Shown one piece after another: positions 18,032-19,189 of a DNA stretch of 22,785 bases (the first letter of the stretch is position 1; the number at the start of each line of letters is the position of its first letter). The notes below the pieces were generated by a model. It saw only the letters and a list, made by a program, of their open reading frames with translations, was not told the origin of the DNA and searched no databases. The DNA is taken from positions 1 through 22,785 of the forward strand of contig JBARVL010000638.1 in the NCBI GenBank assembly GCA_049646245.1, in the 5' to 3' direction. Source of the DNA: Crinalium sp. (GTDB lineage: Bacteria > Cyanobacteriota > Cyanobacteriia > Cyanobacteriales > PCC-9333). A program made the position numbers and the translations under genes.

Positions 18032-19189
18032 ATGTTAAATATATCTTTGCTTAAGAAAGTTCCTCCCTTGCAAAAGTATTACTGGCCACCAGTAAACCAT
18101 TTTGAAGAATTCAGCGCAAATTTTTCGGAATTTTTGAAGCTGAGTCGTCAAAAACAGCAACACTACCTAGTAGAACTGAGAAACCAAGAAGAAGATTTAT
18201 ACAATCAATTTCTTCATAACTCTTTAGCCCAAATATATGCTTACTGGCTTGGCTATCACGATAGTCCTTGTTATTTACAGGTAGATGAAGAAATAGAGAT
18301 AAAGTTGTGCAGTGCCAAACTTTGTTTAGAAACAGAACTCATTGAAAACGGATTAACTATAGAGCCAATAAAACAAAAACTTTCCCAAAGTGATACAGCT
18401 AATTATTTAAATGCCCTCGCCATTAATAATCCAGGGATAGACCATCCTCTGTTTGATTACCTTCAAACCGCACCCAAGGAAGTTTTATTACGTTTTTTAC
18501 TACACGAAGTCATGCGAAATGAGGTGGTAGATGACGAAGTTAGCCTCTTGGTATCCGGCTTACAAGGTGCATTCAAAATGGTGGCTGCTTCTAATCTCTG
18601 GGATGAGTGCGGACGAGGTAAGCTGTCTAATGCTCACACTTACTGGCTCAGACGATTGCTAGAAGCAATTAATGGTTGGCAAGAATTAGCTACTTACCGT
18701 CAAGTTAGCCCTTGGTTTTCCAAGATCACGTCCAATATTTTTATGATGCTTCTGACTCGTCCAGGGTATAAATTAGCTGCCTATGGCTATTTTCTTATGT
18801 CTGAAAGTGCCGTAGCTCCACATTTTCAGAAGATTTTAGCAGGTCTCGATCGCGTTGGCTTGATTCAGGAAGACATCAAAATTTACTTTGATGCTCATCT
18901 CAAGATTGATAAGTATCACGGACAGGAACTTGTAAATGCAATTGGTTACCAAAAACCAGATTTAACGCAGCCAGAAATTGACCTAATTCTATTAGGGACA
19001 CATCTTTACATTGCTGGTGCCACTATGCAGTACGACAGAATGCTACCTGAGCTTTCTTCACAAAAATTAACTGCTATGACAAGGCGAAATAATGAGCATA
19101 GAGGTTTACTGTCTTGGAATGATCTGAATTGGCAAGTGTCGCCATCTCCAATATTGAATGACGAGGTTAATTCTGTAGATTGCCCTTAA
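18032..19189 (+). CDS. Heme-oxygenase-like diiron oxidase/oxygenase (HDO; 'iron-containing redox enzyme' family)
   Basis: NLWDECGRGKLSNAHTYWL gives Glu192 and His202 (E-x9-H). FLMSESAVAP gives Glu258. YFDAHLKIDKYHG gives His289-x3-Asp293-x2-His296 (nt 18896-18919). This is the 3-His/3-carboxylate pattern and spacing I associate with SznF/UndA/BesC-type HDOs. An extra ~130-aa N-terminal region is unassigned. Confidence 0.8.
   Translation: MLNISLLKKVPPLQKYYWPPVNHFEEFSANFSEFLKLSRQKQQHYLVELRNQEEDLYNQFLHNSLAQIYAYWLGYHDSPCYLQVDEEIEIKLCSAKLCLETELIENGLTIEPIKQKLSQSDTANYLNALAINNPGIDHPLFDYLQTAPKEVLLRFLLHEVMRNEVVDDEVSLLVSGLQGAFKMVAASNLWDECGRGKLSNAHTYWLRRLLEAINGWQELATYRQVSPWFSKITSNIFMMLLTRPGYKLAAYGYFLMSESAVAPHFQKILAGLDRVGLIQEDIKIYFDAHLKIDKYHGQELVNAIGYQKPDLTQPEIDLILLGTHLYIAGATMQYDRMLPELSSQKLTAMTRRNNEHRGLLSWNDLNWQVSPSPILNDEVNSVDCP

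Follow-up and report, generated by a model that had tools for sequence, protein, structure and literature searches.

What does an enzyme of the HDO superfamily oxidise when its gene lies directly behind a gene pair for the synthesis of L-2,3-diaminopropionate (Dap)? The question is raised by a 22,785-nucleotide contig of the cyanobacterium Crinalium sp. (GenBank assembly GCA_049646245.1, contig JBARVL010000638.1; "the window" below is this whole stretch), on which an SbnA-family gene, an SbnB-family gene, an HDO gene and a gene for an LctP-family permease follow one another on one strand (Table 1). An earlier reading of the same DNA, here called the original prediction, had recognised a complete set of diiron ligands in the HDO and had left its substrate between Dap, a Dap conjugate and a fatty acid from a neighbouring FAAL operon. 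We find that the gene encodes a member of the HDO superfamily by fold, ligand motif and Pfam match alike, and that the protein belongs to a discrete, uncharacterised HDO subfamily that forms a cluster of its own. The function that we favour, tentatively and with a confidence that comes near to "probable" without reaching it, is that sbnA-sbnB-HDO-lctP would be a self-contained cassette in which the HDO is the oxidative step, N-oxygenating Dap to a product that is then exported.

The HDO reading frame is open throughout, has a single methionine within its first 160 codons and faces a reverse strand with many stops. PF14518 (Haem_oxygenas_2, the "iron-containing redox enzyme" family) matches residues 154-305 with 91.4 bits against a gathering score of 28.9; no NCBIfam model matched the protein. 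A homologue search of 5.8 billion proteins, clustered at 90%, returned 213 HDO relatives, most of them 44-57% identical, 340-385 residues long and covering 85-90% of the query. Among 1.84 billion proteins, 34 representative clusters matched at E ≤ 1e-30, followed by a sharp drop to 1e-14.

An AF2 model built from a 49-sequence alignment is all-helical (mean pLDDT 90.8, pTM 0.87), with pLDDT below 50 only at residues 360-384. The top 33 Foldseek matches of this model in the PDB are all HDO-fold proteins, the first six being N-oxygenase structures, four of HrmI and two of RohS. The HrmI matches (E = 3e-9 to 1e-8, 349-352 columns on chains of 336-343 residues, target TM 0.72-0.77) are followed by RohS (1e-5), 3bjd, then FlcD, CADD and SznF (about 1e-4) and BesC (7e-4). 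The family profile likewise matches only HDOs in the PDB: HrmI, the sole strong sequence match (E = 3e-20), the Pseudomonas aeruginosa protein 3bjd, and RohS and SznF, the last two with E-values of 1e-3 to 5e-2.

Gene neighbourhood of the HDO subfamily

The surroundings of the HDO gene were scanned in one genome per GTDB species, giving 72 loci from about eight phyla, with neighbours detected by tblastn (SbnA and SbnB within 6 kb, LctP within 3 kb). SbnA and SbnB stand together beside the HDO at 38 of these loci, nearly always directly upstream and co-directional, and SbnA/SbnB-type contexts span Cyanobacteria, Myxococcota, Pseudomonadota, Actinomycetota, Chloroflexota, Planctomycetota and Fibrobacterota. 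An LctP homologue lies immediately downstream of the HDO at 27 loci, 18 of which also have both SbnA and SbnB. In Pseudomonas, Polyangium and two Streptomyces species the partners score 382-398 bits, above the SbnA and SbnB equivalog cut-offs. HDOs from the SbnA-SbnB(-LctP) context occur on every branch of a neighbour-joining tree, indicating that this context is ancestral.

The cassettes are compact. Gene overlaps of 1-11 nt in Polyangium and Kitasatospora point to operons, and in Polyangium and Pseudomonas the four genes lie close together as an autonomous unit between unrelated flanks. The four-gene cassettes of Pseudomonas, Polyangium and Sorangium contain no carrier protein, and minimal cassettes have no ligase either. 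In the window, a terminator and promoter scan of positions 15100-21400 found no more than shuffled sequence would give, and the four genes have no terminator between them; the real start of the permease may be an ATG at about 19431.

SbnA and SbnB would together make free Dap from O-phosphoserine and glutamate, and Dap is probably what the HDO acts on. Among the substrates first suggested, Dap is strongly favoured by the conserved SbnA-SbnB linkage, while the fatty acid has lost ground, the FAAL operon not being co-conserved and UndA being a weak match. An UndA-like enzyme acting on a fatty acid or acyl-Dap, with its N-terminal region docking the carrier, is suggested by FAAL, ACP, desaturase and methyltransferase-like genes 5-11 kb away on the opposite strand. 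It is nevertheless most improbable: none of the genes of that operon has a homologue by tblastn in 78 related loci, by which we ruled out a link to them, and a CHAT-domain gene and a 590-bp gap separate it from the HDO cassette. Moreover, UndA matches the fold only marginally (E = 0.036, TM 0.43), so that the protein does not group with UndA-type fatty-acid decarboxylases; the N-terminal region belongs to a fold of the HrmI type, and HrmI takes a free amino acid; and the presumed pocket residues are highly charged and not hydrophobic.

A different doubt concerns whether free Dap is the molecule bound. The HDO could act on L-glutamate, on the SbnA product N-(1-amino-1-carboxy-2-ethyl)glutamate (ACEGA) or on a downstream Dap conjugate; N-hydroxyglutamate, for example, might be carried by SbnA and SbnB to aminooxy- or N-hydroxy-alanine. 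Such a route would account for the ten Streptomyces loci in which an SbnA-family gene stands alone, without SbnB, directly upstream of the HDO, for nine loci with HDO and LctP and no SbnA or SbnB nearby, one of them among housekeeping genes in Fischerella, and for 15 loci with none of the three. It also has a precedent in the D-cycloserine pathway, where the N-O reagent is made first and a CysK-like PLP enzyme then attaches it. We consider it improbable all the same: SbnA-SbnB-HDO is the commonest order and shows translational coupling, the polar residues of the presumed pocket are invariant in every context, which makes one common small polar substrate likely, and a conjugate fits poorly with minimal cassettes that have no ligase.

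The Fischerella muscicola locus (L035:9968-12611) is a lone HDO-LctP pair between KAS, transketolase and ATP-synthase genes, with no SbnA or SbnB within 10 kb; its Dap source, if any, must lie elsewhere, or the substrate is taken up. Sequence identities within the window are uneven as well. SbnA and SbnB are 67-72% identical to those of a Crocosphaera metagenome-assembled genome (L034) and about 27-38% identical to those of other phyla, whereas for the HDO the figures are 44% against its Crocosphaera counterpart and 45-50% against proteins from distant phyla; the contrast points to different histories or evolutionary rates.

Two nested actinobacterial subclades depart from the four-gene plan. 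One, of ten species, has the order SbnA-SbnB-(EamA exporter)-(2-hydroxyacid dehydrogenase)-HDO followed by a DcsG homologue, and DcsG-like genes accordingly lie immediately downstream of the HDO at 10 of the 72 loci. In Kitasatospora (L083:5998-11988) these six genes form a compact operon with overlapping stop and start codons, which looks like a pathway from Dap to a cycloserine-like small heterocycle; operons of this DcsG type are also present at L007, L008, L013, L017, L019, L024, L026, L030 and L077. The DcsG homologue scores 168.7 bits, below the DcsG equivalog cut-off of 360, and the 2-hydroxyacid dehydrogenases beside the HDO score best as phosphoglycerate dehydrogenase or glyoxylate reductase.

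The other subclade, of 17-18 Streptomyces species, carries an FAD amine oxidase, a class-III aminotransferase and two GMC oxidoreductases. In S. niger (L079:38-13600), S. rimosus (L036) and 15 further Streptomyces loci the cluster also has an acetyltransferase, a DegT aminotransferase and a GT2 protein, and the HDO comes at the end, followed by a ROK kinase and a cytosine/purine-type permease; about half of these loci have an SbnA-family gene without SbnB directly ahead of the HDO. In a third and smaller Streptomyces context the extra genes encode three ATP-grasp ligases, a luciferase-like monooxygenase and a flavin reductase.

Diiron ligands, presumed pocket and chemistry

The translation has E, H, E, H, D and H at positions 192, 202, 258, 289, 293 and 296, in the peptides NLWDECGRGKLSNAH (residue 188), MSESAV (residue 256) and DAHLKIDKYH (residue 287), just as the original prediction had listed them. 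All six are invariant in 49 homologues (44-70% identity) and again in 55 full-length homologues, each from the genome of a different species. Only 32 of the 385 columns of the 55-species alignment are invariant, and the chance that six positions named beforehand would all be among them is (32/385)^6, about 3e-7, which places the ligand pattern well beyond chance.

The six residues fall in an HMM alignment on SznF E215, H225, E281, H311, D315 and H318 (numbering counted from the alignment), five of which are given as metal-binding in a review, and likewise on HrmI E194 and H204, its core-α2 residue and its HxxxDxxH motif. Spacing is similar throughout: E-x9-H, +66 to the Glu and +31 to HxxxDxxH in the window HDO, compared with x9, +66 and +30 in SznF, x9, +66 and +28 in RohS, and x9, +64 and +30 in BelK. 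Invariance and these alignments bear out the E...H / E / HxxxDxxH arrangement that had been proposed. In BelK, Y295, four residues ahead of the first His of HxxxDxxH, is essential; its equivalent here, and that of SznF Y307, is Y285, which is invariant in the 55 species. An intact ligand set is in itself ordinary, being present in any active HDO. The protein is very probably a functional, O2-activating diiron enzyme.

PqqC and TenA share this fold, and CADD, whose ligand set is the same, fits the core with a target TM of 0.83, so a non-catalytic or metal-free protein of the PqqC/TenA kind, or a self-sacrificial one of the CADD type, has to be weighed. Either is very hard to credit. PqqC and TenA first appear at rank 34 of the Foldseek matches, with E-values of at least 4e-3, where the original prediction had named clustering with them as the outcome that would count against it; the model instead ranks HrmI first. 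The six ligands and the essential Tyr are all invariant, and we ruled out a PqqC/TenA-like or otherwise non-catalytic protein on the fold ranking together with the ligands. A conserved operon with a substrate-making pair argues for a turnover enzyme, and the context is Dap synthesis, with no folate-pathway genes.

The first 130 or so residues had been described as an extension without a counterpart, possibly a docking domain for a substrate or carrier protein. Residues 1-130 do lie outside the PF14518 model, but they are conserved across the subfamily (W18, P19, L65, Y75, E89, E100 and N133 are invariant or nearly so) and are modelled with pLDDT 94-98. The profile match to HrmI runs from residue 60 to 344 against HrmI 59-342, making the region collinear with HrmI, and the structural alignment covers essentially the entire HrmI chain. 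These are the helices that precede the bundle in "long" HDOs (HrmI/BelK, FlcD and 3bjd) and are integral to the fold. HrmI acts on a free amino acid and the minimal cassettes have no carrier protein, which leaves a carrier-docking role unsupported; conservation in the family alignment, the confident AF2 model and a match to HrmI over the full length led us to reject the docking domain.

Auxiliary helix α2 carries the motif R162-N-E164-V-V166-D167-D168-E169, which is almost wholly invariant. In SznF and RohS this helix provides a seventh, glutamate ligand (E189 and E98, respectively) 26 residues ahead of the first core Glu, and in SznF it also supplies substrate-binding determinants. By position counting, the invariant V166 sits where that glutamate lies, and the same position is Phe in BelK (F179) and HrmI (F168). 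By alignment, the valine would place the window enzyme in the three-histidine, three-carboxylate (3H/3C) class, as originally predicted. The AF2 model breaks the helix at 164-165, with E164 two residues before V166 and E169 one turn after it, and one of these two may reach Fe1 as an extra ligand. The pair D167/D168 aligns with HrmI D169/D170.

The motif is probably a determinant for binding the amine and carboxylate of a small, charged substrate. K182, D191, R207 and H264 are further invariant polar residues; they are identical across all gene contexts, which suggests one common type of substrate. These pocket residues were assigned from conservation and not from coordinates. C193 (window 18608-18610), directly after E192 in DECG, is nearly invariant (53 of 55); its position in the aligned DExGxG motif holds Met in HrmI, Tyr in SznF and Phe in RohS.

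On the reading that we favour, Dap would bind beside Fe1 in a charged pocket formed by the RNEVVDDE motif with K182, D191, R207 and H264. The Fe2(II/II) cluster and O2 would then give a peroxo-diiron(III) species, an oxidant known from other HDOs, to attack the substrate. Stepwise N-oxygenation of the β-amine would lead to N3-hydroxy-Dap and possibly to 3-nitroso- or 3-nitro-alanine, much as HrmI takes the ε-amine of lysine to N6-hydroxylysine and on to a nitro compound. The LctP-type permease would then export the product, export being the direction of transport that we infer.

That the chemistry is N-oxygenation is a tentative assignment, one that is conceivable more than it is probable. We favour it over cleavage because the closest relatives by sequence and fold are the N-oxygenases HrmI and RohS, because Dap is the C3 member of the series Dap, Dab, Orn and Lys, whose last member is the substrate of HrmI, and because a DcsG-like partner gene recurs. 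The characterised DcsG substrate presumably carries an N-O nucleophile on which DcsG closes the ring.

With Dap as substrate, the HDO might instead cleave C-C or C-N bonds, decarboxylate oxidatively, desaturate or rearrange, as BesC, UndA, FlcE, FlcD and AetD do, and LctP would then move a C2 or C3 oxime, nitrile, amino-aldehyde or oxo-acid. Most characterised 3H/3C HDOs are indeed not N-oxygenases (UndA, BesC, AetD, PolF and MboA), the seventh-ligand position here is Val, LctP-family permeases, to judge by the family's name, take small monocarboxylates, and some actinobacterial clusters have 2-hydroxyacid dehydrogenases adjoining the HDO. We nevertheless regard these reactions as unlikely: the nearest relatives are N-oxygenases, with BesC and UndA well behind in the ranking; an N-O nucleophile would account more readily for the DcsG homologue as a partner; and the 2-hydroxyacid dehydrogenases may simply supply phosphoserine to SbnA.

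Several points weigh against N-oxygenation of Dap. McBride et al. associated N-oxygenation with the seventh Glu ligand, and the position of that marker is the invariant V166, although HrmI and BelK likewise do without it. Identity to HrmI is only about 21%, and HrmI and BesC, with the same ligand set and nearly the same substrate, differ in their chemistry; we agree with the original prediction that the reaction of an HDO cannot be read from its sequence. The 15 loci with no Dap or permease genes, the second Streptomyces subclade with its amine oxidase, aminotransferase and GMC oxidoreductases, and the possibility that glutamate or ACEGA is the substrate point the same way. LctP-family carriers, moreover, are usually importers of small hydroxy-acids, and 3-nitroalanine as a natural product was not reported in the literature searched.

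At its widest, and rather doubtfully, sbnA-sbnB-HDO might be a widespread, undescribed route to a C3 amino acid with an N-O bond, namely N3-hydroxy-Dap, 3-nitroalanine (an aspartate mimic) or aminooxy-alanine. LctP would carry it out of the cell in cyanobacteria, myxobacteria and proteobacteria, and actinobacteria would cyclise it with the DcsG homologue. Were this true, the actinobacterial product would be a cycloserine-like isoxazolidinone or an N-hydroxy-β-lactam, and the pathway would yield a new family of small antimetabolites and the first HDO acting on a vicinal diamine.

Feature coordinates, C-terminal tail and the rest of the window

Table 1. Coordinates in the window of the cassette genes and of the parts of the HDO protein discussed in the text.
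Feature	Position	Strand	Basis
SbnA-family PLP enzyme, first step of Dap synthesis	15767..16795	+	TIGR03945 359.7 bits, cut-off 349.95
SbnB-family NAD dehydrogenase, second step of Dap synthesis	16849..17877	+	TIGR03944 391.2 bits, cut-off 326.9
HDO gene	18032..19189	+	385 aa, PF14518
N-terminal helical region, aa 1-118, ahead of the seven-helix bundle	18032..18385	+	conservation, model, HrmI match
Motif R162-N-E164-V-V166-D167-D168-E169, auxiliary helix α2	18515..18538	+	conserved in 55 species, all gene contexts
Core helix α1 ligands E192 and H202, motif NLWDECGRGKLSNAH	18605..18637	+	family alignments, profile alignment
Core helix α2 bridging ligand E258	18803..18805	+	aligned with SznF E281
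Y285 and core helix α3 ligands H289-x3-D293-x2-H296	18884..18919	+	family and profile alignments
C-terminal tail, aa about 346-385	19067..19189	+	pLDDT 40-60, tblastn
Divergent LctP-family permease, presumed product exporter	19356..20921	+	PF02652 106 bits

The C-terminal tail, predicted to be disordered, is present only in the window HDO and a 97%-identical relative; the remaining 48 homologues of the alignment lack it. Two related cyanobacterial contigs have a separate small ORF of 112-131 residues behind the HDO (L001:9060-9455 and L082:10267-10605), and tblastn matches these ORFs to window positions 19076-19231 (45% over 42 residues, E = 1e-5 against the local region), so that the tail is homologous to their N-terminus. 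The HDO gene of the window has lost its stop codon and reads on in frame into a truncated 5' remnant of the small downstream gene.

An Rfam scan of the region upstream of sbnA and of the whole window found no riboswitch or other known RNA at E ≤ 1. About 130 nt upstream of sbnA, positions 15626-15665 (GTAATATTTTTTAC-N20-TATCCT) resemble an NtcA-activated promoter; we set aside the NtcA-type site GTAN8TAC at 15626-15639, as the window has 7 matches to this pattern where 4.1 are expected, which is not significant.

The cassette is flanked by a CHAT-domain protein (13882-15180, reverse strand) and a DUF928 protein (22048-22785, forward strand), whose reading frame continues past the end of the window at 22785. 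Further upstream, positions 7304-13014 of the reverse strand hold the co-directional genes for the ACP (7304-7669), a membrane fatty-acid desaturase, the FAAL and a weak methyltransferase-like protein, with two ORFs of 228 and 87 residues that have no family match; by conservation this block is unrelated to the HDO cassette, and the window contains no PKS or NRPS. Positions 1-7002 of the forward strand are a run of nine co-directional ORFs, almost all of them without a Pfam match. One encodes a 784-residue protein with a C-terminal VanX-type D-Ala-D-Ala dipeptidase domain (Peptidase_M15, 133 bits), and the run may be a mobile or cell-wall-remodelling element.

Relation to characterised enzymes and pathways

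HrmI and BelK, the L-lysine N6-oxygenases of hormaomycin and belactosin biosynthesis (PDB 9N1A, 9N1X and 9N2A), are the best match in both sequence and fold. They share with the window HDO their length class, the N-terminal helices, the 3H/3C set with a non-carboxylate at the SznF E189 position (F there, V here), the D-D pair on auxiliary helix α2 and the Tyr four residues ahead of HxxxDxxH, and they act on a free diamino acid, as is predicted here. The window HDO is not their orthologue, however: at about 21% identity it falls in a separate cluster, its neighbours are SbnA, SbnB and LctP, linking it to Dap synthesis, and the Fe/2OG cyclopropanase partners HrmJ and BelL are not among the Pfam-annotated neighbours of the inspected loci. 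E164, E169, C193, K182 and H264 are invariant residues specific to the window subfamily, and the predicted substrate is three carbons shorter, which would bring both amines and the carboxylate near the metals.

The HDO domain of SznF and RohS, which have three histidine and four carboxylate ligands, share the E-x9-H ... E ... HxxxDxxH motif at nearly the same spacing and conserved functional residues on auxiliary helix α2. They differ in the seventh Glu, here a Val, and in their substrates, which are guanidine or aminoimidazole compounds; the window HDO also has no cupin domain. BesC, UndA, AetD, PolF and MboA, which cleave, desaturate or rearrange, belong to the same superfamily with the same primary ligand set, and most of them take free amino acids or peptides, but they are short HDOs without the N-terminal helices, are weaker fold matches (E = 7e-4 to 4e-2) and stand in other gene contexts.

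Among pathways, staphyloferrin B biosynthesis uses the same two-enzyme route to L-Dap, and the window pair passes the same equivalog models, but in the cassette this route leads on to an HDO and a permease, with no siderophore synthetase, NRPS or ligase. Dapdiamide, sulfazecin and alanosine pathways also use Dap. D-cycloserine biosynthesis employs a CysK-like PLP enzyme (DcsD) and an ATP-grasp cyclase (DcsG), and the actinobacterial cassettes likewise pair a CysK-like PLP enzyme with a DcsG homologue after the HDO; the window differs in having no DcsG homologue, and the inspected loci have no genes for a heme N-hydroxylase, an arginase or an O-acetyltransferase.

In the literature searched, which left most subscription journals outside its coverage, we found no description of this subfamily and no HDO linked to Dap, SbnA/SbnB, ornithine cyclodeaminase or DcsG, and the supplements of the MboA genome-mining paper make no mention of SbnA or Dap. 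A 2026 review of HDOs counts about a dozen validated enzymes, none acting on Dap. Reactions are known for about a dozen of more than 10,000 HDOs, and nearly every characterised one has brought unprecedented chemistry to light.

A conserved, cross-phylum Dap-HDO cassette turns an anonymous "iron-containing redox enzyme" into a testable three-gene pathway and points to an undiscovered oxidised small molecule. It offers a clean entry point, with a likely substrate from its own operon and three or four genes in place of an assembly line, in hosts that include sponge and mussel symbionts, soil Streptomyces, Pseudomonas and cyanobacteria. N-oxygenated Dap, if it is the product, would be a new class of natural antimetabolite. 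In cyanobacterial blooms, a setting in which toxins derived from Dap, BMAA among them, are a matter of debate, it might also be an overlooked source of hydroxylamine or nitro compounds. To enzymologists it would show how a diiron HDO copes with a substrate so small that its two amines can chelate Fe1. Set beside the known systems, the scaffold is familiar; what is new is an uncharacterised clade, a likely substrate encoded by the same operon, and a conserved partner for export or cyclisation.

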